Virus record (IMG/VR): IMGVR_UViG_3300000096_000017
Direction: 5' to 3' (one strand)
DNA length: 8,463 nucleotides
DNA from: a virus
Taxonomy: Duplodnaviria > Heunggongvirae > Uroviricota > Caudoviricetes
Each line of letters starts with the position of its first letter. Within the stretch, counting starts at the first letter, position 1. The notes beneath the pieces were generated by a model. It was not told the DNA's origin, did no database searches, and saw nothing but the letters and a program-made list of their open reading frames with translations. Shown one piece after another: positions 1-8,463 of this stretch. The position numbers and the translations under genes are program-made.

Positions 1-9
1 TTCCCCTGA

Positions 10-1716
10 TTACTCAGAGTCACCGGCATCAATCGTGTCGCCGCTTATAAAGTTAAGCCCGCCTTTTTTGGCCATTGTCAGCGTTACACGAGTGAAGTAA
101 TCAGCGCCGTTGCGTGGGTGCATATCGTTGATAGCCGAACCCCACAGCGTGGTACGGTTGACCAGCGCCGGAGTGGTCGGATGCTGGAACGGGATGGCCG
201 GGACAGCATCACCAGTCACGAAGCCTGCTTTACCCGGATTTTCATCACGGACGTAGCACAGCACATCCATCGAGCTGAACTGAATGTTCTCTGTCGTTAA
301 GTTCTTACAAATACCAGCAGGTACTTCGTACACTTTCACGTTACCGAACAGGGTACCGATGTAGTGAACATACGGAGTCTGGATATAGTCTTCGGCTGAC
401 TGGAAGAAATCCTTCGGCAACTGTTTGAAGAAAGATGCTGCATCAGCACCAGCAAACATCCCCATCGCACCAGAAGATTTAACGCGCTCAATAATGTCGC
501 GATATACAGTCTGGAATTTGCCACGAATGATGGTTGCCCATACATCAAAGGACTGGTTAACCGGCAGAGCGATGTCAAAGGTGTCGGTCGCAAGAGTACG
601 CCAGATCATGATGCGAAGACGCAGCATATCCTGTTCATGAGACAGGTATTCCTTCAGGGTGCGGAACTGTAGGGAACCCAGGTCCAGACCAAATTCACGC
701 TGTGCTTCATACGCCGCCTGTACCGTGTGCTCAGCCGCGATAACGAACTGACTTGGGAACAGGGTGTATTTCTTCATTTCGTGGTTGATCAGCGGGATCA
801 GCTCAGGAGCGGCTTCAATATTGATTTCCGTCTCAATTGCGATCTCAGTGCCTTTATCCGGCGCTTTGGAGAACGACAGGGCAATCTGACCAATGTTGTA
901 GTTCAGAGAGCAGGTAACAGTGATTTGCTCACCAGCAGCATTAGTAAACGAGTGAAGTAGGCTGCCGGAACCGTTATCAACAACAGACTTAATACGGTTA
1001 ACGTAGATGTTAGTGCGACCTTTTCGGATTGGTACATTCTGGCCTTCGAAGTCTTCCATCTTGAAGGTTGCGGTTTTGCTGGTGCCATCGGAGCTTGCCA
1101 CCAGCACATAGCGGCGACGTAACTGGCTGTACACACCGACGGATTGCATGTCCAGAACATCACCAGCAGCATAAGAACCAAAAGATGAACCTGCCACGTT
1201 AAAGACTTCATAGATGTCGGACTGGTCACGCGTAACCGGAATGAAGGTACACGCATCAGCGGTAGCTGCCCCCAACTGAACAGGCAGGATCATCGCGAGG
1301 AATAAAGGCAGACGCATAACACCGTCAGAAACGCTCATCATCTCTGCTGCGACGGATTCCAGCATCGCTTTATTAGTGGCATCCATGCTATTGCGGGTGG
1401 ACTCAATCAGGCAGTTTTCCAGCGTCTGGTGGCAGGAGGCCAGAATTTCCGGACGCGGCATAGATTTATGTGCTGCGGCGTAGTCAGCCAGTGCACTTGC
1501 CCACGCTGTAGCGATTTGAGCGGTGGCATTATCAGAGATACCCGCAAAAACCGGGTCTTTACGTGCAGCTTCAAGGATAGATGCGGCACGCGCGGCATCA
1601 TCTTTAATGAATTGGTTATCAGTACCGAACTGCGCAGTGCTTGCCCAGCCAAGCACAGCTTTAGAGCGTTTTGCGATATCTGCAATACGATTCTGGTATT
1701 CGCGTAAGTTACTCAA
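10..1716 (-). CDS. Large structural protein, probably major head (capsid) protein precursor, analogous by position to P1 gene 23
   Basis: Single long minus-strand ORF (track 10..1737, 575 aa) with no in-frame ATG in its first ~90 codons. The track start at 1737 is TTG with no ribosome-binding site; a second in-frame TTG at 1716 follows AGGAAG by 6 nt, so 1716 is the likelier start. Ala-rich N-terminal region resembles a cleavable scaffold-like domain. Product call rests on size, position next to parS as I recall for P1, and the palindromic promoter upstream; no catalytic motif was recognised. Confidence 0.5.
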   Translation of the reverse strand: MSNLREYQNRIADIAKRSKAVLGWASTAQFGTDNQFIKDDAARAASILEAARKDPVFAGISDNATAQIATAWASALADYAAAHKSMPRPEILASCHQTLENCLIESTRNSMDATNKAMLESVAAEMMSVSDGVMRLPLFLAMILPVQLGAATADACTFIPVTRDQSDIYEVFNVAGSSFGSYAAGDVLDMQSVGVYSQLRRRYVLVASSDGTSKTATFKMEDFEGQNVPIRKGRTNIYVNRIKSVVDNGSGSLLHSFTNAAGEQITVTCSLNYNIGQIALSFSKAPDKGTEIAIETEINIEAAPELIPLINHEMKKYTLFPSQFVIAAEHTVQAAYEAQREFGLDLGSLQFRTLKEYLSHEQDMLRLRIMIWRTLATDTFDIALPVNQSFDVWATIIRGKFQTVYRDIIERVKSSGAMGMFAGADAASFFKQLPKDFFQSAEDYIQTPYVHYIGTLFGNVKVYEVPAGICKNLTTENIQFSSMDVLCYVRDENPGKAGFVTGDAVPAIPFQHPTTPALVNRTTLWGSAINDMHPRNGADYFTRVTLTMAKKGGLNFISGDTIDAGDSE

Positions 1717-1768
1717 TTTACTCTTCCTTAAACACAAGGCACTTGTGTGAATCCCTTTTCGGAAGAGA

Positions 1769-1796
1769 TTTTATTGAAAGTCACTTGTTGACTTTC
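1769..1796 (-). promoter_or_regulatory. Candidate late-type promoter for the structural gene: 8-bp inverted repeat plus -10 hexamer
   Basis: Perfect inverted repeat GAAAGTCA (1776-1783) / TGACTTTC (1789-1796) with a 5-bp spacer. On the minus strand a TAAAAT hexamer (plus 1769-1774) lies about 14 bp downstream of the palindrome centre, roughly 25-45 nt upstream of the candidate start codons. P1 late promoters are described as a -10 element plus an upstream inverted repeat bound by the late activator; the exact consensus is not recalled. Confidence 0.35.
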
Positions 1797-1853
1797 TCGT
1801 GACAAGCAATTTTTTTATTTTTTTCGGGAGTAGGGGAGGAAGGTAAAATCCAA

Positions 1854-1940
1854 GGTGAAATCGTGGCGATTTCACCTTGAAATTTTAGAGGGATTTACTT
1901 TAAAAACAGTAGGTTAATAGTGAAATTTGAATGGCGAAAG
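1854..1940 (-). other. parS: parS partition site (centromere) of the P1 type
   Basis: Begins immediately after the parB stop codon. Read on the minus strand it contains the P1 parS motif layout: box B TCGCCA (plus 1932-1937), box A ATTTCAC (1920-1926), an AT-rich ~35-bp spacer where IHF binds in P1, then ATTTCAA (1877-1883), GTGAAAT (1869-1875), box B TCGCCA (1864-1869) and box A ATTTCAC (1855-1861). Confidence 0.85.
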
Positions 1941-1941
1941 T

Positions 1942-2943
1942 TTAAGGCTTCGGCTTTTTATCGAGGCTCTTTCTAAGGATATGCCCAATCATCCTGTCGA
2001 GTTCTTCCTGTAGCTCTTTTGAAAGTCGATTAAACTCATAAGAAAATGCACGGCCTTTCACGCGCTTCCTTGCAAAGCGATCCTTGTCCTCAAATTTCCA
2101 TAATTCAGTAACTACGGACTTATCTTTAGAACCTTTATCCGTGAGTAGTGAGGCTTCCTTTGTTATCAAGCGCAGGATTTTATTTTTAACTTCATCTTCG
2201 GCCATTTCTTCAATGGATAAGATGTCGTTTATTTCCGGGGATATGTTTTGAATAAGCTGATCAAACTCTAAATTCTTGTTCCCCATTTCGTCGCCAACAG
2301 CACAAAGCGTTTTGTAGTCCGAAAAGGTTAATTCCGACTGCACAGGGAAAAGGGCGACTAATTCTTCCGGAGCACTCGCTGCCTGGAGAGCACGCGTGAC
2401 CTTCGCCTGAGACAGCCCTTCTTTGGCTGCAATATCCTTCTGACTCATCCCATCATTTTTCATTCGCATCAAACGCAGACCTATTTCTCGAATGCTGTGC
2501 TGCAATGCTGTCTGAACGTCTTTCGCTAAATTTTGCGCTTCCTGAACGCTGATCTCCTGGTCCGTGACTAAAACCCGCAACCCTACGTTCTCTAAGATGG
2601 CAGAAGCTCGACGCCGGGAACCATCCAAAATTTCAATTTTCCCTGTAGCCCGTCTAACACCTATTGCAGGGTAAAATTGCTGATGCTTAATAGTGCTTCG
2701 GATACTTTTTAATGATTTTGGCGTAAGAGATGCCTGGTCACGCCCGTTGTTATGCTGATCAACAAAGGTATCGCTTTCTACCTGGTTCGGAGGTATTACC
2801 TCTTCAATAAATGTGGCCTGGCGACCAGTTGATAACTTGAATACCTGCTCGACTCGATCGCCAGAGGCTGAAGAACTATCAAATCCGCTTAATATTGAAG
2901 GATTAAGGGTTCGCCCAATTGTTGGTCTGTTTTTCTTTGACAT
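1942..2943 (-). CDS. parB: ParB centromere-binding partition protein, 333 aa
   Basis: ATG start at 2943, TAA stop at 1942-1944; lies 16 nt downstream of parA with GGAG immediately after the parA stop. Length, position directly upstream of parS, and the translation (MSKKNRPTIGRTLNPS...) match what I recall of P1 ParB. Confidence 0.95.
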   Translation of the reverse strand: MSKKNRPTIGRTLNPSILSGFDSSSASGDRVEQVFKLSTGRQATFIEEVIPPNQVESDTFVDQHNNGRDQASLTPKSLKSIRSTIKHQQFYPAIGVRRATGKIEILDGSRRRASAILENVGLRVLVTDQEISVQEAQNLAKDVQTALQHSIREIGLRLMRMKNDGMSQKDIAAKEGLSQAKVTRALQAASAPEELVALFPVQSELTFSDYKTLCAVGDEMGNKNLEFDQLIQNISPEINDILSIEEMAEDEVKNKILRLITKEASLLTDKGSKDKSVVTELWKFEDKDRFARKRVKGRAFSYEFNRLSKELQEELDRMIGHILRKSLDKKPKP

Positions 2944-2959
2944 GGGGGTTTCTTACTCC

Positions 2960-4156
2960 TCAGTTAGATCTGATAAATTCAATACGGTCAAAAACTGCTT
3001 TAGCAAAATCTTCCGCAGCAATTCGCGCGTTCTTCAATGCATCAGCACTACCAACATACGTTGCCGGGTTAGCTGAAATAACAGTGTCAAAAGACTCGCC
3101 GCAGCGTTCAAAACCGTCAAGGCGAGGGAGGACAACATCAAGCATATCCCCACCGAACACTTCTTTAGCCAGGCTATGGCAATACTTATGGTCTGCCTTG
3201 TTACTCAACTTGGACATAAAACCAATGTTAGTTGCAAGCTGACACTCGCAGCCTTCATCCGAAATGAGTTTCACCAACTCAGGAAGGCGGGCAACGTATT
3301 TAAGCGATGAGTGGAAATCAACCGTTGCAGGCGGCAGAGGTGTAAACAGTATATTGGCCGAGGCCAAAGCATTTTTCAGGAAGGCGTCAAGGTGAGGACC
3401 ACTATCAACGAGGATAAAGTCATAATCGCTCTTCAGCTTATCAATCACATTTTCTTTCAGGACTGCATGGATGTTCTGACCCGGTAGATGCTCATTGCAC
3501 AGCTCTCTCCAATCGGATGCAATAAAGGCATCGTCAATCGACGCAGGCATAACGTCAACCCCAGGTACAACAGAAGGAACAATAAACTCCTCTAACAGCT
3601 CTTCACGGCTTACATTCTGCAACATAGCCTGTGCAGATGTTGCGTTTACGATACCAATAGAGTGTTTATGGCTTAAAAACATCGTTGCTGAAGATTGCGG
3701 ATCAAGGTCAATAACCAGAATCCTTAAATCTTCCATCAGAAGATGAGGATGAGCACGCATTGCATGCGCCAGAGAAACCGTCGATACAGTTTTTGACACA
3801 CCGCCTTTAAGATTGGAGATGAAAATCACATACGCTTCGCTGTAGCGATCCCGGTATTTTGGCACTCCGCGATGTTCATATATGTCAATGATGTTCTGAA
3901 TTGACATCGCATATTTCATTGAAGAGCCAGCAGGGCGTTTATCGAAAACATAACCCTTTTCTTCCATTTCACTTACGGCATAGTCAACGTTCGCACGAGT
4001 CAGTAGAGGCAATTTTGCCAGTGCCGCTTTCGCATAGACCTGGTAAAACTCGTTCGCGTGTAGCTCATCCTTTTGCAACTGTACTTGTTCAGTCAGAACA
4101 TTGAGCATTCTATTTGCTCTTTGAGCAACCTTGTGAAGCTGGCTGGAATCACTCAT
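2960..4156 (-). CDS. parA: ParA partition ATPase, 398 aa, type Ia with N-terminal DNA-binding extension
   Basis: ATG at 4156 preceded by AGGA at 9-nt spacing. Deviant Walker A motif KGGVSKT within NLKGGVSKTVST, and a ~100-aa N-terminal extension typical of autoregulatory type Ia ParA. Translation (MSDSSQLHKVAQRANRML...) matches my recollection of P1 ParA. Confidence 0.95.
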   Translation of the reverse strand: MSDSSQLHKVAQRANRMLNVLTEQVQLQKDELHANEFYQVYAKAALAKLPLLTRANVDYAVSEMEEKGYVFDKRPAGSSMKYAMSIQNIIDIYEHRGVPKYRDRYSEAYVIFISNLKGGVSKTVSTVSLAHAMRAHPHLLMEDLRILVIDLDPQSSATMFLSHKHSIGIVNATSAQAMLQNVSREELLEEFIVPSVVPGVDVMPASIDDAFIASDWRELCNEHLPGQNIHAVLKENVIDKLKSDYDFILVDSGPHLDAFLKNALASANILFTPLPPATVDFHSSLKYVARLPELVKLISDEGCECQLATNIGFMSKLSNKADHKYCHSLAKEVFGGDMLDVVLPRLDGFERCGESFDTVISANPATYVGSADALKNARIAAEDFAKAVFDRIEFIRSN

Positions 4157-4169
4157 CGAAAGTCATCCT

Positions 4170-4209
4170 TTATGCTGTATTTTTGAATTTAATTAAAAAT
4201 GCTGCATAA
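4170..4209 (-). promoter_or_regulatory. par operator/promoter region (imperfect 40-bp inverted repeat)
   Basis: TTATGCTGTATTTTTGAATT (4170-4189) is a near inverse complement of AATTAAAAATGCTGCATAA (4191-4209), with 2 mismatches and 1 indel, in an AT-rich stretch 14-53 bp upstream of the parA ATG. In P1, ParA binds a large imperfect palindrome overlapping the par promoter. Confidence 0.55.
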
Positions 4210-4296
4210 AATAATAATGTATGCGTAGATGCTTGTACATAGCATTCTCTGCATGTTTGGTTCATTTTGCACGATTGAGAGTTACAAGGAGGGCAC

Positions 4297-4317
4297 AAAA
4301 AAGCCCCGTTCAGGGGC
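4297..4317 (-). terminator. Rho-independent terminator after the 269-aa gene
   Basis: Stem GCCCC (4303-4307), loop GTTCA, stem GGGGC (4313-4317), starting 8 nt past the stop codon at 4325-4327. On the minus strand the hairpin is followed by a TTTTTT run (plus A-run 4297-4302). Confidence 0.6.
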
Positions 4318-4324
4318 ATCAGTG

Positions 4325-5134
4325 TTATTTGCTAAGAGCAGCGAATAATCGTTCGAAATCGATAGTATCTATAGCACGCGTAAGCGCCGGAAGTTCAGCC
4401 TCAAAGTACCCGTGTCGATCGTAAAAGAAGGGACCGAAGAGCGAGGCATGTTGGATTCTACTTCGCCCCAGCCCGGACACACAGTTAAGCCCATTACCGG
4501 CTAAAAGGCTAAAAAACTTCTCTGGATTATCGTGGTAAAGCTGGGAATCAATGGTGGCGGTTAACTCTTCCATAGGGAAGCACACCCGCCCTGTATCCCA
4601 GGGATATTTAGTCCGAAGCATAAACATTGCTTTCAGCAATTCACATTGAGCGCGGATCGCGTCCGGTTCATAGCCAGATATGGAGACATAAGCCACGTCC
4701 CTCATTCCTGCGTCATCTTTGAAAGTCACGATAGAAGTAACATCCAGCTCTTTTTCGAAAGAGCAAGCAGCATCTACTGGACGCTGAAGTAAATCATTCG
4801 ACTTAATGCGCTCGAGAATCCCTCCCCACATATCATTTAGATATTCGATATGAGCCAAAACCTTATCAAGACACTCTCGTGTAAACCATTCAGTATGCCC
4901 GCCACCGGCGCTTTTCTCCCACGGCGCATTCCAGGGGAAAAAGGTTGCGTGTAAAGCCCGCTCAAGATTAACCATTGCCAAACGCGTACCACGATAGACC
5001 CGTGAAAGCGCAAAATCGGGACTCACTTGTAGCCCTTTAAACCGTGCCAATGGACCACATGAAATGCCGATTTTAAAAGTATCTCCGTTCTCTGGCACCA
5101 GAACGTAGAGGTAGTGTTGTTTCTCTTCTTGCAT
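4325..5134 (-). CDS. Standalone 269-aa protein with GIY-YIG-like (T5orf172/MUG113-type) N-terminal domain and uncharacterised C-terminal domain
   Basis: ATG at 5134, TAA at 4325-4327, own terminator downstream. Residues 8-25 YLYVLVPENGDTFKIGIS fit the GIY-x(9-11)-YIG spacing, followed by a conserved-position Arg (GPLAR), LERALHATF and GGGHTEWF, matching the pattern I recall for T5orf172-type domains. The C-terminal ~170 aa have no motif I recognise. Weak ribosome-binding site. Confidence 0.75.
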   Translation of the reverse strand: MQEEKQHYLYVLVPENGDTFKIGISCGPLARFKGLQVSPDFALSRVYRGTRLAMVNLERALHATFFPWNAPWEKSAGGGHTEWFTRECLDKVLAHIEYLNDMWGGILERIKSNDLLQRPVDAACSFEKELDVTSIVTFKDDAGMRDVAYVSISGYEPDAIRAQCELLKAMFMLRTKYPWDTGRVCFPMEELTATIDSQLYHDNPEKFFSLLAGNGLNCVSGLGRSRIQHASLFGPFFYDRHGYFEAELPALTRAIDTIDFERLFAALSK

Positions 5135-5167
5135 ATCAATACCACTGCTTGATGAGAACCGCGCAAA

Positions 5168-5425
5168 TGTTGACTATGCGCGAAGGTTAATGTGAATAGT
5201 TGACTATGCGCGATGTGACTACAGTCAAAAGTTGACTGTAGTCGATTTAACTCCACCAAAGATCGACTATGTAAGATATTGTCGGGAGAAACGTTGACTA
5301 TACGCGATGAAATGCCCCTAAAAGCCATCTCAATAGCGACTTGCAGAATATTGACGCCAGCAAAAATCCACCAGCGTCAACGAATGTCGCCTATAGTCAA
5401 CTTCTCGCTATCGCATATAGTCAAT
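5168..5425. repeat. incA-like iteron array downstream of repA, about 9-10 copies in both orientations
   Basis: Core AGTCAA/TTGACT with flanks matching the origin iterons. Reverse-orientation copies at 5168-5183, 5198-5214, 5231-5243, 5293-5308 (perfect reverse complement of an origin iteron) and degenerate 5263-5275, 5348-5360. Forward copies at 5217-5228, 5388-5401, 5410-5425 and degenerate 5372-5385. Confidence 0.8.
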
Positions 5426-5426
5426 A

Positions 5427-6311
5427 TTATGGATTGCGCTTATGGATCTGGAAGCCGATTTTCCTGCCGTTTTTTATCTCTGAAAATTTAAGATATTCAA
5501 TAGCTTCCAAATCTTTCATGGCTTTTCTGATAACGCTATTTTGCACGCTAACGGATGATTTGAGATTAAGCCTCGCTCTAAGGCGCTCAATGCTGACAGG
5601 TGCCGGGTTGGCGGGTAGAGCCTCAAAGAATGTATACAGTACCTTGGCCGTCTCTTTGCGCCCTAGTTTATCCAGCATCTTCAGCTTCAGGATTCGCTTA
5701 TAGTCAACATAGTAAAGTTCAGATAGCTGTTTCTGCGGCTGGATCTCGATAACATCAAGCTCGGTATTCAGGCTGCTATATGCCAACAAGTTGACGTTAA
5801 TGTTATTGAGATGACCTTTTGCCGCCGGGAAGCGGAATTTGACAACTGTCTGCTGAATGCGTGTCAGAGAGTCATCAATACTTTTACGGAACGCCTTTGA
5901 AAGGCGCTTACGTGGATAGCCGCATCGATCGGCAAACTCGGAGAATGGCAGGGTGATTATGCCGTCATCATCAGGTGCGTAGTCAAACAACGCGGAGGTT
6001 ATGCCCACCCACACCTTAAAATCAGTATCCATATCCAGGCGTGGACCATGAATTTCAATTCCCTCATAGCCTTCCTGCTCAACAATTTTGAGGCTTGATA
6101 GTTCTTCAGTTGCGTTCGTTGTGTTTGTTGTAACTGACGATCCGCGACGTAGCGCCACATTGGTAGATTTTAAGGTTGGCACAAACACACCTAAGCGCAA
6201 CAAAGCGATGGGTTGTATAGTGCTGTTGTTATTGGGCTTCAGGCTGTGGATTTCTCCTGTATTTCCTGCAACTTCTTCAACGCTAAGGAAGCCTTTACTT
6301 TCTTCCGGCAT
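5427..6311 (-). CDS. repA: Iteron-binding replication initiator RepA, P1 RepA family
   Basis: Track ORF 5427..6347 starts at TTG; an in-frame ATG at 6311 is preceded by GGAG at 8-nt spacing (GTG at 6314 also possible), giving ~294 aa. Motif-by-motif similarity to P1 RepA as I recall it (QPIALLRLGVFVP, GPRLDMDTDFKVW, YTFFEALPANPAPVSIERLRARL, C-terminal HKRNP) but clearly diverged. Flanked on both sides by iterons. Confidence 0.9.
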   Translation of the reverse strand: MPEESKGFLSVEEVAGNTGEIHSLKPNNNSTIQPIALLRLGVFVPTLKSTNVALRRGSSVTTNTTNATEELSSLKIVEQEGYEGIEIHGPRLDMDTDFKVWVGITSALFDYAPDDDGIITLPFSEFADRCGYPRKRLSKAFRKSIDDSLTRIQQTVVKFRFPAAKGHLNNINVNLLAYSSLNTELDVIEIQPQKQLSELYYVDYKRILKLKMLDKLGRKETAKVLYTFFEALPANPAPVSIERLRARLNLKSSVSVQNSVIRKAMKDLEAIEYLKFSEIKNGRKIGFQIHKRNP

Positions 6312-6359
6312 CACGGTTTCTCCATGTGTGGCGCGGCCTGACGTCAATTTGGATGGCTG

Positions 6360-6603
6360 TTATCAACAGCTGTGAATATTCAGACTCTAAAATCGCTTAC
6401 AGTCAATGTTTCTGTCGCGTATAGTCAACAATAAATCGCGTGCAGTCAACAATAAATCGTGCACAGTCAACATAAAATCGCGTATAGTCAATGTTGATCC
6501 CATTTCAGGCCAGTAATGACGCGGCTTACAGCGATCCGGGATCTTCTTTGGATCTTCCTAGGTTCTCTTTAGGATCTGTTTATTGGATCTATGCTGTGGA
6601 TAA
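6360..6603. other. Vegetative plasmid origin (oriR-like): DnaA boxes, GATC cluster and iterons
   Basis: Perfect DnaA box TGTGGATAA at 6595-6603; six GATC sites at 6496, 6533, 6540, 6551, 6573 and 6586, several in a GGATCT context; the five iterons; and an 8/9 DnaA-like box TTATCAACA at 6360-6368 between iterons and repA. Same module order as P1 oriR. Confidence 0.7.
6392..6493. repeat. Origin iterons: five direct repeats of ~17-19 bp at 21-bp spacing
   Basis: Copies at 6392-6408, 6415-6430, 6435-6451, 6456-6472 and 6477-6493, consensus approximately ATCGCGTRYAGTCAAYR, all in the same orientation. AGTCAA cores start at 6401, 6423, 6444, 6465 and 6486. Confidence 0.85.
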
Positions 6604-6611
6604 GTTGAATA

Positions 6612-6632
6612 AACCGGCCAACAAAGCCGGTT
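6612..6632 (-). terminator. Possible intrinsic terminator for the upstream minus-strand operon
   Basis: Stem AACCGGC (6612-6618), 7-nt loop, stem GCCGGTT (6626-6632), 15 bp downstream of the 130-aa gene stop. On the minus strand it is followed by a T-rich but interrupted tract (TATTCAACTTAT), so it is weak. Confidence 0.35.
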
Positions 6633-6646
6633 GGAAGGAAGTCATA

Positions 6647-7039
6647 TTATTCTACGCTTTCGATAAGAAGACCATGTTCATAACATTTAAGCTCATCGCC
6701 TTCATACAGGAATTGGTATCCAACACCACCATCTTCATGGACATTAGGGAATAACTCATAACTCACTGAAGAGCAAATCACACCAATGCAGCGATCAACT
6801 CCTTCTCGTTCTTCAGTGCTGAAAAAATCCTCTTCGGTAAGAACATGAGTACATTGCTCATCAGCATAGGTCGGAAATACATGCTCGATACAATCCGGAT
6901 GTTTTAAACCAAGTTGATCGGCAAGTTCGAAAGCATGACGGTATTGTTCAGATCCTGGCTTGCCAACAGTGATGTGCTCAATTTTGTAGATTGAAGTCGC
7001 TTTGTTGATAGTTTGCTTAACTGTTACTTTATCAGACAA
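6647..7039 (-). CDS. Hypothetical acidic Cys-containing protein, 130 aa
   Basis: ORF with TTG start at 7039 (no in-frame ATG or GTG anywhere), preceded by AAGGG and beginning 10 nt after the lipoprotein gene stop (TAA 7049-7051), suggesting translational coupling. No motif recognised. Confidence 0.6.
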   Translation of the reverse strand: MSDKVTVKQTINKATSIYKIEHITVGKPGSEQYRHAFELADQLGLKHPDCIEHVFPTYADEQCTHVLTEEDFFSTEEREGVDRCIGVICSSVSYELFPNVHEDGGVGYQFLYEGDELKCYEHGLLIESVE

Positions 7040-7048
7040 AAATCCCTT

Positions 7049-7381
7049 TTAGTTACCGCTGATAGCGCGGTTGTAATCATTAACGTTGCGATTCTTCCTG
7101 TTAATCCCCATCAGCATCGTTTCTGTATCGAGGATATACGCTGGCAGATCATCAAAATATTCACTGCTAAACTCCGGCATCCTGCACATAAATGCACTTT
7201 TGGGGTCAGAGTGCTTAACCTTTGTCGGCGTCGGCGTTAAATTCGCTGATCGACTCCCGGAGCAACCGCTGAGTGTCAGCAGGAATACGCTGGCGAACAT
7301 TACCCGCCGCAACCAGTTGTTTCTGAACTTCAGCTTTTCGTTCCATTTGCCTGTCAGCATACTTGGCTTGTTCTGATTCAT
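7049..7381 (-). CDS. Outer-membrane lipoprotein, 110-aa precursor; candidate o-spanin
   Basis: ATG at 7381 preceded by AGGAAG at 6-nt spacing. Basic N-region, hydrophobic stretch VMFASVFLLTL, lipobox LSGC with Ser at +2 (outer-membrane sorting rule), then a Pro/Thr-rich mature region (TPTPT) with one further Cys. Overlaps the 3' end of the preceding gene in a different frame (7215-7381). Alternative internal ATGs at 7360 and 7300. Confidence 0.7.
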   Translation of the reverse strand: MNQNKPSMLTGKWNEKLKFRNNWLRRVMFASVFLLTLSGCSGSRSANLTPTPTKVKHSDPKSAFMCRMPEFSSEYFDDLPAYILDTETMLMGINRKNRNVNDYNRAISGN

Positions 7382-7637
7382 TTTTCACTTCCTGGCTGTG
7401 AAAATGTTGCTCTGCTTTGTTCATCGTCTCAATGGTCTGGTTAAGATCCATTATTGACTTATCACGTTCCTTAACAGCCTGATCAAGACTGCCAATTTTC
7501 TCCATGGCTTGCTTTAGCAGATGACGTTCCCATGCAAACCCAGCACCAACAAGTGCGCAAATCAGAACAAGAACACCAGTAGCAGCAAGTTTCTCCTTCA
7601 AAGACAAAGCTGTTTTTAACGTAGAAAAGAATGACAT
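7215..7637 (-). CDS. Membrane protein with N-terminal transmembrane segment and coiled-coil-like domain, 140 aa; candidate i-spanin
   Basis: Track ORF starts at TTG 7664, but an in-frame ATG at 7637 is preceded by AGGAGG at 5-nt spacing. One hydrophobic segment (ATGVLVLICALVGAGFAW) followed by a K/E/Q-rich helical region. Its last 167 nt overlap the lipoprotein gene. Confidence 0.7.
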   Translation of the reverse strand: MSFFSTLKTALSLKEKLAATGVLVLICALVGAGFAWERHLLKQAMEKIGSLDQAVKERDKSIMDLNQTIETMNKAEQHFHSQEVKNESEQAKYADRQMERKAEVQKQLVAAGNVRQRIPADTQRLLRESISEFNADADKG

Positions 7638-7676
7638 GTCTTCCTCCTGAAGAAAAATTATCAATGAAGTCCTTTG

Positions 7677-8339
7677 TTACCGTGCCGCTTTGTTTAATTC
7701 ATCAAGAACAGAATCAGGAACCAAAGCGGCGACTGCGCTGGCTGTACTGGCCTTATTTGCTGATGCTTCCGCAAGCGCGGTACCGATAGCATGGTTATAA
7801 GCAGTTATGGCTACGTTGGCGCTTTCCTTCACCCGTTCATACTGCTGTTGCAATGCAACTGTGGGCGCTGTTGTCTGGTTGAAAACAACCCCAAACTGTT
7901 CAGTTGCTACTTTCAGAGATTCAATTTGCTCTTCTGTTAGTGCTGGTGGGGGAGTGGCAGTGCCACCGCCAGAACCAGAGCCTGACGAGCTTCCTGAGCC
8001 AGTGTTAAGGGTCTGGTTAATCTCCCCCATAGCAGCGACTAAACTTGATGTATTAAGCGCGTTTACAGCGTCCTCAAGCGATTTAGTAATAGTCACATCA
8101 CCAATGGCAATAGAGATCGGCAGTTCTGATACTTCTCGCTCATTAGCATGGCAGTAAACATCCCAACCAATATCGAGTTGAAGCAGCATTGACAGATCTG
8201 CATAACCAGCCAACAGGTCCGCGTGCTTAGTTGCCAGTTCTACAATGTTCGTTAAGCCGGTTGTGGTTGTTCTGATCGTTGAAACATAGCTGGTAATAGT
8301 GTCGGGATAGACAATTGTATCCAGAATTAATCCGGTCAA
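7677..8339 (-). CDS. Hypothetical two-domain protein with Gly/Ser-rich linker, 220 aa from the track start
   Basis: Open frame ending at TAA 7677-7679, 39 nt upstream of the next gene. Start is uncertain: the frame is open from 8447, the first start-like codon is TTG at 8339 with no ribosome-binding site, and the first ATG is codon 51. Central linker NTGSGSSSGSGSGGGTATPPP. Confidence 0.6.
   Translation of the reverse strand: MTGLILDTIVYPDTITSYVSTIRTTTTGLTNIVELATKHADLLAGYADLSMLLQLDIGWDVYCHANEREVSELPISIAIGDVTITKSLEDAVNALNTSSLVAAMGEINQTLNTGSGSSSGSGSGGGTATPPPALTEEQIESLKVATEQFGVVFNQTTAPTVALQQQYERVKESANVAITAYNHAIGTALAEASANKASTASAVAALVPDSVLDELNKAAR
7807..8157 (+). other. Plus-strand 116-aa ORF antisense to the 220-aa gene, probably non-coding shadow ORF
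   Basis: Lies entirely inside the minus-strand 220-aa ORF; its translation is low-complexity (the antisense of the Gly/Ser linker reads as PPPEPEPDELPEP). Listed only for completeness. Confidence 0.1.
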
Positions 8340-8374
8340 TTCTTCTGCAAGCAGTTTTGGGTGATGCTGCCAAC

Positions 8375-8463
8375 TTACTGATTTAGTGTATGATGGTGTT
8401 TTTGAGGTGCTCCAGTGGCTTCTGTTTCTATCAGCTGTCCCTCCTGTTCAGCTACTGACGGGG
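8375..8463 (-). CDS. 3' end of an upstream minus-strand gene (partial, start beyond window)
   Basis: A different minus-strand frame is open from the window edge to TAA at 8375-8377 (…PSVAEQEGQLIETEATGAPQKHHHTLNQ*). Only 29 codons are visible, so this is weakly supported. Confidence 0.3.
   Translation of the reverse strand, partial: PSVAEQEGQLIETEATGAPQKHHHTLNQ

Follow-up and report, generated by a model that had tools for sequence, protein, structure and literature searches.

The window, by which we mean the whole 8,463-nucleotide stretch of DNA analysed here, very probably comes from a P1-like phage-plasmid whose replicon is of the p0111 type, and in which a block of ~2.4 kb has replaced the P1 incA-repA-oriR region by recombination. 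The p0111 element and its mosaic nature are not new, since both are published and found in hundreds of sequenced plasmid records. What is added here is modest: the iterons are mapped, the junctions are placed exactly, an iteron within repA is shown to be conserved, and a sister replicon with 85% identity is described from another slot, in D6-like phage-plasmids.

Positions 1–8359 of the window were 98.7% identical at the DNA level to pO111_2 (NC_013370, which we take to be the RefSeq copy of AP010962) and 98.2–99.4% identical to the full-length phage matches, P1-like records among them (RCS47, 98.2%; SJ46, 98.9%; JL22, 98.9%). These are essentially the same sequence with strain-level differences only, and the differences from known p0111-type elements include an IS1 insertion at position 8360 of the window. 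RepA matched that of pO111_2 at 292 of 294 residues, as befits a member of the p0111 type, and was 100% identical to that of RCS47.

The type is named after plasmid pO111_2 of E. coli O111:H- 11128 and is handled by PlasmidFinder as a separate type (PMC9603915, PMC11165635), with AP010962 as the pO111_2 reference in PMC11165635. The IncY repA was replaced by a p0111 repA' together with an unknown gene in 24 of 55 P1-like phage-plasmids (PMC9603915), and ~17 switches between IncY and p0111 were inferred on the phage-plasmid tree (PMC11165635). No description of the iterons of the p0111-type replicon was found in the searchable p0111 literature.

The exchanged block and its junctions with P1

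The window was 99.3% identical to P1 over positions 1–4258 in blastn, and no DNA-level match to P1 was found over 4259–6508. At the left junction, 19 bp upstream of the Ppar -35 element, the identity to P1 dropped from 1.00 to <0.45 within ~25 bp. On the other side, the sliding identity profile remained at ~74% over 6506–6640 and then reached 92% or more, which places the right junction at the 3' end of upfA (stop codon at 6647), where the identity to P1 and P7 stepped from ~0.74 to at least 0.92. The block thus extends from 4259 to ~6640 between sharp identity cliffs, with flanks 93–99% identical to P1, and includes, besides the T5orf172 gene, an entire replicon that has a DnaA box and a cluster of GATC sites of its own (Table 1). 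The recombination would have left untouched the P1 parA-parB-parS operon with its promoter on one side and upfA on the opposite side.

Table 1. Features of the partition module, the exchanged block and its junctions in the window.
Feature	Position	Strand	Basis or detail
parS centromere, P1 type (four boxA, two boxB, IHF site)	1855..1937	-	position from NC_005856 annotation
parB, 333 aa	1942..2943	-	Pfam ParB PF08775
parA, 398 aa, type Ia (N-terminal HTH and Walker ATPase)	2960..4156	-	Pfam HTH_54 and AAA_31
par operator and Ppar promoter, P1 type	4154..4239	-	position from P1 annotation
Left recombination junction	4258..4259		blastn boundary and sliding identity profile
Hairpin and T-run, 3' of T5orf172 gene	~4300-4322	-	read from sequence
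T5orf172 (GIY-YIG superfamily) gene, 269 aa	4325..5134	-	Pfam T5orf172, E 4.7e-6
Downstream (incA-like) iteron array	5166..5428		pattern search and weight-matrix scan
Downstream iterons, opposite sense	5290-5311, weak 5259-5280, 5228-5249, 5196-5217, 5166-5187	+	
Downstream iterons, repA sense	5407-5428, 5383-5404, weak 5363-5384	-	pattern search/weight matrix
repA (p0111 type), 294 aa	5427..6311	-	ATG at 6311, GGAGA before ATG
Intragenic iteron, repA codons 202-206 (VDYKR)	5690..5711	-	weight-matrix score 23.7
DnaA-box-like TTATCAACA, 1 mismatch, between iterons and repA	6360..6368	+	sequence scan
Origin (incC-like) array, five iterons, repA sense	6389..6495	-	pattern search and weight matrix
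GC-rich spacer and GATC (Dam) cluster	6496..6589		sites 6496, 6533, 6540, 6551, 6573, 6586
Perfect DnaA box TTATCCACA at outer origin end	6595..6603	-	sequence scan
Right recombination junction	6625..6650		sliding identity profile

The partition module was of the P1 type throughout. ParB was 100% identical to that of P1 (43% to P7) and ParA 99.75% (58% to P7), and 104 of the 105 nucleotides from 4154 to 4258 were identical to P1. In parS, all four boxA heptamers and both boxB hexamers (TGGCGA) were equal to those of P1 and differed from those of P7, and the central IHF site carried 2 substitutions relative to P1. These features, together with the ParA and ParB domains, are those of a P1-type ParABS system. 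In contrast, RepA shared 42.3% identity over 272 aa (blastp, E 9e-71) with the RepA proteins of P1 and P7, which are 100% identical to each other; a value of 42% was also reported for the RepA of SJ46 against that of P1 (PMC5241659).

A preliminary description of this DNA had proposed a mosaic of a diverged RepA-based replicon and a P1-type parA-parB-parS cassette, and the protein identities, the iteron comparison (see below) and the sharp junctions with P1 bear out this proposal. Its span for the replicon, 5168–6493, runs exactly from the first to the last iteron, whereas the exchanged block is larger, including also the T5orf172 gene and the DnaA-box/GATC half of the origin (6496–6603). The limits that it suggested for a mini-replicon, 6603 to 5160, fit the perfect DnaA box at one end and the outermost iteron at the other.

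The T5orf172 gene is a passenger of the block, located between the downstream array and parA. Its product matched phrog_2876 (unknown function) and, weakly, the endonuclease family phrog_681; PADLOC gave no match to it and the NCBIfam search found nothing. The gene was present in 401 plasmid records, compared to ~395 with a p0111-type RepA (at least 95% identity) in the plasmid collection search. It was intact in the window and split in pO111_2.

Iterons, origin and initiator

The 15-nt iteron core TCGCGTATAGTCAAC, searched with up to 3 mismatches, occurred 12 times in the window, always inside 5169–6492, whereas shuffled sequences contained 0.12 copies on average and never more than 1. Five copies were located upstream of repA, one within repA, and six strong copies downstream in two orientations; a weight-matrix scan added two degenerate downstream iterons (scores 8.9 and 10.1). 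TTGACT and CGA were invariant in all 12 copies (2.0 bits per position), and the core can be written as TTGACTrYrnnCGA. The five origin iterons (consensus AATGTTGACTATACGCGATTTA; core starts at 6393, 6415, 6436, 6457, and 6478) were phased by 21, 21, 21, and 22 bp in the repA sense, representing the tandem, helically phased direct repeats beside rep that characterize a Rep_3 replicon. The ~21-bp phasing and the TTGACT hexamer in every iteron were therefore found as previously described.

The earlier view that the iteron does not resemble the P1 19-mer also held. The P1 iterons, taken from NC_005856, appear unrelated to those of the window: the 19-mer GATGTGTGCTGGAGGGAAA matched nowhere in the window with 3 or fewer mismatches, and at just two sites, a chance level, with 5 mismatches. 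Neither RepA nor the iterons were thus identical to those of P1 or P7. An ordinary P1/P7 (IncY) replicon, with the P1 iteron misstated in the preliminary description, would account for the P1-like gene order (parS-parB-parA, incA-like array, repA, incC-like array, DnaA box/GATC, upfA); with a RepA just 42% identical to the P1/P7 protein, no P1 iteron within 3 mismatches, and no DNA-level match over 4259–6508, this reading is refuted with near certainty.

The origin half outside the iterons retained the elements expected beside Rep_3 iterons, namely DnaA boxes and a GATC-rich opening region, and these are kept in the relatives. The perfect DnaA box was conserved in L004 and pO111_2. Of the GATC sites, five were clustered at 6533–6586 and one, at 6496, adjoined the outermost iteron; this region was ~74% identical to the Dam-site region of P1 oriR and near-invariant in the relative with an 85%-identical RepA. 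The second, DnaA-box-like sequence aligned with a perfect TGTGGATAA in that relative, the rest of the leader having diverged.

No sigma-70-like promoter was detected on the repA strand in the consensus scan, which gave three plus-strand matches, equal to the shuffle expectation. In the relaxed scan, the best repA-strand candidates matched only 3 of 6 positions of the -10 element, and the comparison with the 85% relative revealed no -10 element by conservation, the leader not being conserved there. In P1, PrepA is annotated within the iterons, whereas no promoter was recognisable within those of the window. Autoregulation by RepA binding at the -35-like TTGACT is plausible by analogy to P1. An Rfam search of the whole window returned nothing, and hence no antisense-RNA family.

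RepA is homologous to P1 RepA and RepFIB RepA, which assigns it to this Rep_3 subfamily, and it matched phrog_775 (E 2.6e-134). Pfam Rep3_C scored 27.3 bits, over the cut-off of 21.1, and Rep3_N 22.0 bits, just under the gathering cut-off of 22.4; the NCBIfam search found nothing, and the PDB sequence search with RepA returned noise only. In the AlphaFold model, residues 91–294 had a mean pLDDT of 67–93 (10-residue blocks), and the N-terminal 70 residues were of low confidence. The top Foldseek matches of the model were RctB, RepE, the MSBI1.176 WH1 domain, Pi, the pPS10 RepA WH1 domain, and TrfA, with probabilities of 0.95–1.0 and low global TM scores (0.2–0.37). These domain-level matches indicate that the modelled RepA has the two winged-helix domains (WH1-WH2) of such initiators.

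The intragenic iteron was identical at 15 of 15 nucleotides in the 85% relative, where only 121 of the 251 codons for the same residue were identical, and P1 repA had no counterpart.

In the downstream array, the opposite-sense iterons were phased by ~31 bp, and the 3+5 layout in two orientations mirrors the 3+6 layout of P1 incA. Alternatively, the array could have no part in copy control, its repeats being functionless copies of the origin iterons, decayed or duplicated, or else operators of the T5orf172 gene. The two degenerate copies among the eight, an outer part whose DNA does not align with that of the 85% relative, and the position immediately upstream of the start of T5orf172 (5134) would fit this alternative. 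However, six copies kept the invariant TTGACT...CGA core, the phased two-orientation layout resembles that of P1 incA, and the D6-like relative retains an equivalent array though it is without the T5orf172 gene. We therefore consider this alternative improbable, and a copy-control array the preferred reading.

Relationship to the P1, RepFIB and D6-like replicons

The p0111 replicon is paralogous to the P1 (IncY) and RepFIB replicons, whose architecture it shares. In P1 and P7, the homologous initiator gene likewise lies between parA and upfA. Their origin shares with the window a DnaA box, five GATC sites, and five iterons at ~21-bp phasing in the repA sense, and in both cases a downstream array in two orientations with ~31-bp phasing abuts the repA stop codon. 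Conversely, the iteron of the window, TTGACTATACGCGA, is unrelated to that of P1/P7, the downstream iterons number eight (6 strong, 2 weak) compared to nine, and the intragenic repA iteron and the T5orf172 gene are extra in the window. The defining IncY features, a RepA near-identical to that of P1 and P7 and the P1 iterons, were thus not found.

The RepA proteins of the RepFIB (IncFIB) plasmids belong to the same family, with 44–49% identity to that of the window. The IncFIB replicon of pAA (E. coli O104:H4) also has five upstream iterons at 21 bp and more downstream in both orientations, but its iteron, ATAAACTGTAGTCAGTGAA, differs from that of the window. In addition, RepFIB RepA proteins are longer (~325–340 aa) and are encoded by conjugative or mobilizable plasmids, unlike the phage-plasmid examined here. 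Capture of the replicon from an F-type plasmid of this group might be suggested by several database records that label the protein 'RepFIB replication protein A', and by its similarity to thousands of IncFIB-type initiators. However, RepA is equally distant from IncFIB and P1 (42%), the pAA iteron is unlike that of the window, relatives of at least 80% identity were found only in P1-like and D6-like phage-plasmids, and p0111 is a separate type in PlasmidFinder. Such a capture is accordingly extremely improbable. A Proteus relative had an iteron matching that of the window at 14 of 21 positions.

A sister replicon was found in D6-like phage-plasmids (NZ_CP085065 of E. coli; also in E. marmotae), with an 85%-identical RepA and 77% DNA identity over window positions 5364–6603. 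Its iteron, GTTGACTATrYGCGA, is of the same type, its layout of five upstream, one intragenic, and downstream iterons is that of the window, and its DnaA-box/GATC region is near-identical. Its downstream array has one iteron in the repA sense and four in the opposite sense at 30–32 bp phasing. The slot of this replicon, flanked by pmgB-like and tub-like tail genes, is not homologous to that in the window, and the replicon has neither an adjacent parAB (a ParM-type gene lies elsewhere) nor the T5orf172 gene, which is also absent from P1. Phage D6 itself was rejected as the replicon source: it carries an unrelated F/RepE-like replicon in the pmgB/tub slot, with F-like iterons and a RepA that gave no blastp match.

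The first BLAST boundary, at 6509, had prompted the idea of a chimeric origin, in which new iterons would be fused to the P1 GATC/DnaA half of oriR. This was rejected, because that half has only ~74% identity to P1 and is closer to its counterpart in the p0111-like replicon of the D6 lineage; the origin as a whole is therefore part of the cassette that came in.

Vertical divergence of the P1 replicon in place, instead of a cassette exchange, would be in keeping with the homology of RepA, of the GATC/DnaA origin half, and of the overall layout to P1. It is very improbable in view of the abrupt identity steps at both junctions, the extra gene inside the block, the sister replicon with the same iteron in the D6-like slot, and the repeated IncY/p0111 switches in the published phylogeny (PMC11165635). 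Furthermore, no graded IncY-p0111 intermediates were seen in the plasmid collection, in which 392 RepA matches had at least 99% identity, 3 had 95–99%, 1 had 90–95%, 2 had 80–90%, and the other 4602 were below 60%. These results argue for replacement of the P1 replicon by recombination.

Predicted copy control and incompatibility

In the repA sense, the architecture reads as a DnaA box, a GATC cluster, a GC-rich spacer, five iterons, a second DnaA-like box, repA, and a two-orientation array of ~8 iterons. By homology with P1, RepA monomers, with their two predicted winged-helix domains, would bind to the five iterons of the origin and open the adjoining GATC-rich region together with DnaA, and initiation would be timed by Dam methylation and SeqA. 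The downstream array would titrate RepA and pair with the origin (handcuffing), keeping the copy number near one, and RepA may repress its own synthesis, as the P1 system suggests. The copies would then be segregated by the P1 ParA, ParB, and parS.

Since the iteron is unrelated to the P1 19-mer, the equivalents of incA and incC should differ in specificity from those of IncY, whereas incB/parS stays P1-specific. The different incompatibility specificity proposed in the preliminary description can thus hold for the replicon determinants only. Because parS is of the P1 type, incompatibility with P1 through the partition system should persist. The 'pO111' plasmid of PMC13596339 is an IncFIA virulence plasmid, and that study was therefore rejected as evidence of IncY/p0111 co-residence.

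A further and rather unlikely proposal is that the p0111 replicon is a discrete portable cassette of ~1.3–1.4 kb that begins at the DnaA box, ends with the downstream iterons nearest to repA, and was installed independently in the P1-like parA/upfA and D6-like pmgB/tub slots. On this proposal, its spread over IncY in P1-like elements was perhaps aided by the tightly linked, GIY-YIG-like T5orf172 protein as a homing-type nuclease, and the DNA-level conservation of the intragenic iteron might reflect an additional site of control by RepA binding, absent from P1.

Because the element and its mosaic structure are already published with hundreds of records, the window itself amounts to routine annotation, and the iteron map and junctions are a modest aid for designing mini-replicons or incompatibility tests. 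P1-like phage-plasmids spread resistance genes, CTX-M and mcr-1 among them, and are typed as IncY or p0111. The exact extent of the exchanged DNA, together with the unchanged partition specificity, points to which incompatibility barriers would be lifted between co-infecting P1-like elements, namely those of replication control, and which would be kept, namely parS and presumably immunity.

Genes of the window and its nearest relatives

All genes of the window lie on the minus strand, in the same order as in P1 (table). In a megablast search of phage genomes, RCS47, SJ46, JL22 and several records labelled P1 were 98.2-99.4% identical to positions 1-8359; the matches to reference P1 (NC_005856) fell into two pieces that together covered only 72% of the window, against 44% for P7. 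The phage-plasmid pO111_2 (NC_013370), after which the PlasmidFinder p0111 type is named, was 98.7% identical to the window (292/294 in RepA).

The IS1 left end interrupts upfB. P1 and all of the close relatives cease to match after 8359, which makes the insertion a peculiarity of the window's source. In the metagenome scaffold ERZ28622530, an IS1 end abuts window position 6876, parA is broken into two ORFs, and the RepA call is shorter (266 aa) and 90% identical, in an otherwise P1-like context with 99% identity. This scaffold probably represents the same element, altered by assembly or by a frameshift, rather than a distinct replicon.

Features of the window; origin parts (from the first DnaA box on) are listed in the repA sense, hence in descending coordinates
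Feature	Position	Strand	Remark
gp23	10-1716	minus	
parS	between gp23 and parB		
parS IHF site	1904-1916		
parB	1942-2943	minus	
parA	2960-4156	minus	
Terminator-like hairpin	~4300-4322		GCCCCTGAACGGGGC + T-run, after the T5orf172 gene
T5orf172 gene	4325-5134	minus	269-aa ORF
repA	5427-6311	minus	
Intragenic iteron	5690-5711		codons 202-206 of repA
upfA	6647-7039	minus	
mlp/ppfA, then upfB	after upfA	minus	
IS1 left end	8360-8463		GGTGATGCTGCCAACTTACTG...
DnaA box	6603-6595		TTATCCACA
Five clustered GATC sites	6586, 6573, 6551, 6540, 6533		
GC-rich spacer	between GATC cluster and iterons		
Sixth GATC	6496		beside outermost iteron
Five origin iterons	6495-6389		
DnaA box	6360-6368		one mismatch; perfect in the sister replicon L004
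GGAGA, then repA ATG	ATG at 6311		start following the RCS47 annotation

Iterons and architecture of the origin

The iteron repeat is confirmed and far from random: TCGCGTATAGTCAAC, with at most three mismatches, occurs 12 times in the window, all within 5169-6492, whereas 200 shuffles averaged 0.12 copies and never gave more than one. The weight matrix built from these copies gave the repA-sense consensus AATGTTGACTATACGCGATTTA, in which TTGACT and CGA are invariant, bearing out the preliminary description, which had placed TTGACT in every iteron. That description had also judged the repeat unlike the P1 19-mer: NC_005856 has 14 annotated P1 iterons, all GATGTGTGCTGGAGGGAAA-like, and nothing similar was found anywhere in the window.

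Five copies lie upstream of repA, with a phasing of 22, 21, 21 and 21 bp. The downstream array, in which the weight matrix located two more degenerate iterons, abuts the repA stop and comprises two strong iterons and one weak in the repA sense, and four strong and one weak in the opposite sense with a phasing of ~31 bp. The arrangement is that of P1 incA, the array downstream of P1 repA (3 + 6 iterons). A full-strength iteron also lies inside repA, whereas P1 repA contains none. L004, a carrier of a sister replicon with an 85%-identical RepA, has this intragenic iteron unchanged at 15/15 nt, and the flanking synonymous sites are mostly changed, with identical codons at 121/251 (48%) of the same-residue positions (p ~0.03, a rough value from a single comparison).

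The architecture of the origin is P1-like throughout, with an entirely different recognition sequence. A consensus promoter scan gave no hits on the repA strand, and in a relaxed scan the best -10 matched at 3/6 positions only, nothing convincing. Between the window and the 85% relative, conservation of the leader past the last iteron is confined to the DnaA-like box. The proposal that the iteron TTGACT could serve as the -35 of an autoregulated promoter is reasonable by analogy, since P1 PrepA lies inside incC, the P1 origin iteron array.

By homology with the P1 plasmid replicon, as established, RepA monomers would bind the five origin iterons, and DnaA at the flanking boxes would help to open the GATC-rich region, the methylation state of which would gate re-initiation. 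The downstream array would lower initiation through RepA titration and origin handcuffing, and the products would be partitioned by P1 ParA/ParB/parS.

Extent of the swapped block and the partition module

In blastn, identity to P1 was 99.3% over 1-4258 and 93% over 6509-8359, and no P1 DNA match was found over 4259-6508. In a sliding profile, P1 identity fell from 1.00 to <0.45 at 4258/4259. The drop falls 19 bp upstream of the -35 element of Ppar, so that the P1 versions of the par promoter and operator are retained (104/105 nt). On the right side, identity was 0.70-0.76 across 6506-6640 and stepped to at least 0.92 at ~6640, where upfA has its 3' end. The idea of a chimeric origin, in which new iterons were joined to the P1 Dam/DnaA half, is ruled out by the values across 6506-6640, and also by the near-invariance of the Dam/DnaA region in the L004 sister replicon. 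These comparisons indicate that the whole origin arrived with the cassette. The swapped block, estimated at ~2.4 kb, spans the T5orf172 gene and its own terminator-like hairpin, the downstream and origin iterons with repA between them, and the GATC/DnaA-box region.

The T5orf172 gene, of the GIY-YIG superfamily, corresponds to phrog_2876, a phrog without assigned function. Among P1-like plasmids, its segment was found in 401 records and p0111 RepA in ~395, with near one-to-one co-occurrence. The gene is frameshifted in pO111_2 and hence dispensable for maintenance, and it is missing from the D6-like element with the sister replicon.

For the partition module, ParA is 99.75% identical to P1 and 58% to P7, and ParB 100% and 43%, respectively, in both the window (1942-4156) and RCS47 (2441-4655); all parS boxA and boxB elements of the window equal those of P1. 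Together with a RepA only 42.3% identical to the P1 and P7 RepA, which are identical to each other, and with iterons of a different sequence, these results support the mosaic proposed earlier, namely a clearly diverged replicon of its own joined to P1-type parA, parB and parS. The ParA and ParB of RCS47 (= SJ46) have been relayed as matching P7 exactly and lying far from P1 (PMC5241659), a statement that appears to be inverted; the boxB elements of parS are likewise P1-type. In the parS IHF site, two substitutions relative to P1 fall in the IHF-binding core (AAACAGTCAGTTA to AAACAGTAGGTTA), and two further ones lie in the spacer; all ParB boxes are unchanged.

Distribution of the replicon and predicted incompatibility

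In Pfam, RepA matched Rep3_C above the cut-off and Rep3_N marginally below it. An AlphaFold model, with a 34-sequence alignment as input, had mean pLDDT values of 67-93 in 10-residue blocks from residue 91 onward, and its best PDB matches were iteron initiators (RctB domains 2-3, RepE, Pi, pPS10 RepA WH1 and TrfA). In the plasmid collection, 392 records were at least 99% identical, six were at 80-99%, and all others were <60%; in a clustered protein database, the next relatives were at 85-94%, followed by Proteus at 53% and a large RepFIB cloud at 44-49%. Both distributions indicate that p0111 RepA forms a distinct, tight clade about equally far from P1 and IncFIB. The iteron sequence tracks this divergence: the Proteus relative has TTGTTGATGCTAGTCGATAAA, matching the window iteron at 14/21 positions, and IncFIB pAA has ATAAACTGTAGTCAGTGAA.

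The 85% RepA occurs in both E. coli and E. marmotae (L004, L005, NZ_CP085065 and their relatives). In iteron type and layout, this replicon agrees with that of the window; the DNA identity is 77%, limited to window 5364-6603. The element that carries it is D6-like, at 76% identity to phage D6, and has a partition gene of the ParM type; the replicon lies between pmgB-like and tub-like genes. In this slot, NZ_CP085065 (9814-13074) has a p0111-like RepA with TTGACT...CGA iterons, whereas the initiator of phage D6 (1900-3050) is unrelated, a 251-aa protein of the F/RepE-like kind that goes with GGTGTAAGATTTGCCCTCAA iterons. Replicon cassettes are thus exchanged in both the P1-like and the D6-like lineages. 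A solitary P1-type iteron-like 19-mer, TATGTGTGCTGGAGGGTTG, adjoins the tub-like gene of D6 (3008-3026) and matches the P1 iteron at 15/19 positions (estimated chance expectation for the locus, ~0.02).

The preliminary observation is confirmed; the feature belongs to a replicon type that had been catalogued before and is represented by hundreds of records. SJ46 RepA, the same as that of RCS47, was described as just 42% identical to P1 RepA (PMC5241659, 2017), and repA' (p0111) with an unknown gene was reported in place of repA (IncY), with p0111 in 24/55 P1-like phage-plasmids (PMC9603915, 2022). Elsewhere, 63/119 P1-like phage-plasmids were typed p0111 (PMC10879196), and ~17 switches were inferred between the IncY and p0111 types, two types that "can theoretically be compatible" (PMC11165635, 2024). 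An explicit p0111 iteron map, in itself routine annotation, appears absent from the literature searchable in full text, where p0111 and iterons were mentioned together in a single review-type paper.

Because the iterons and RepA differ, the incA- and incC-type determinants are predicted to differ from IncY. Partition-based incompatibility with P1 should persist, given a parS whose P1 type extends to both boxB hexamers; this qualifies the "different incompatibility specificity" proposed earlier. The residual novelty is small, and lies in the conserved intragenic iteron in repA, the tight linkage of the p0111 replicon to a GIY-YIG-like gene, and the portability of the cassette between P1-like and D6-like elements.
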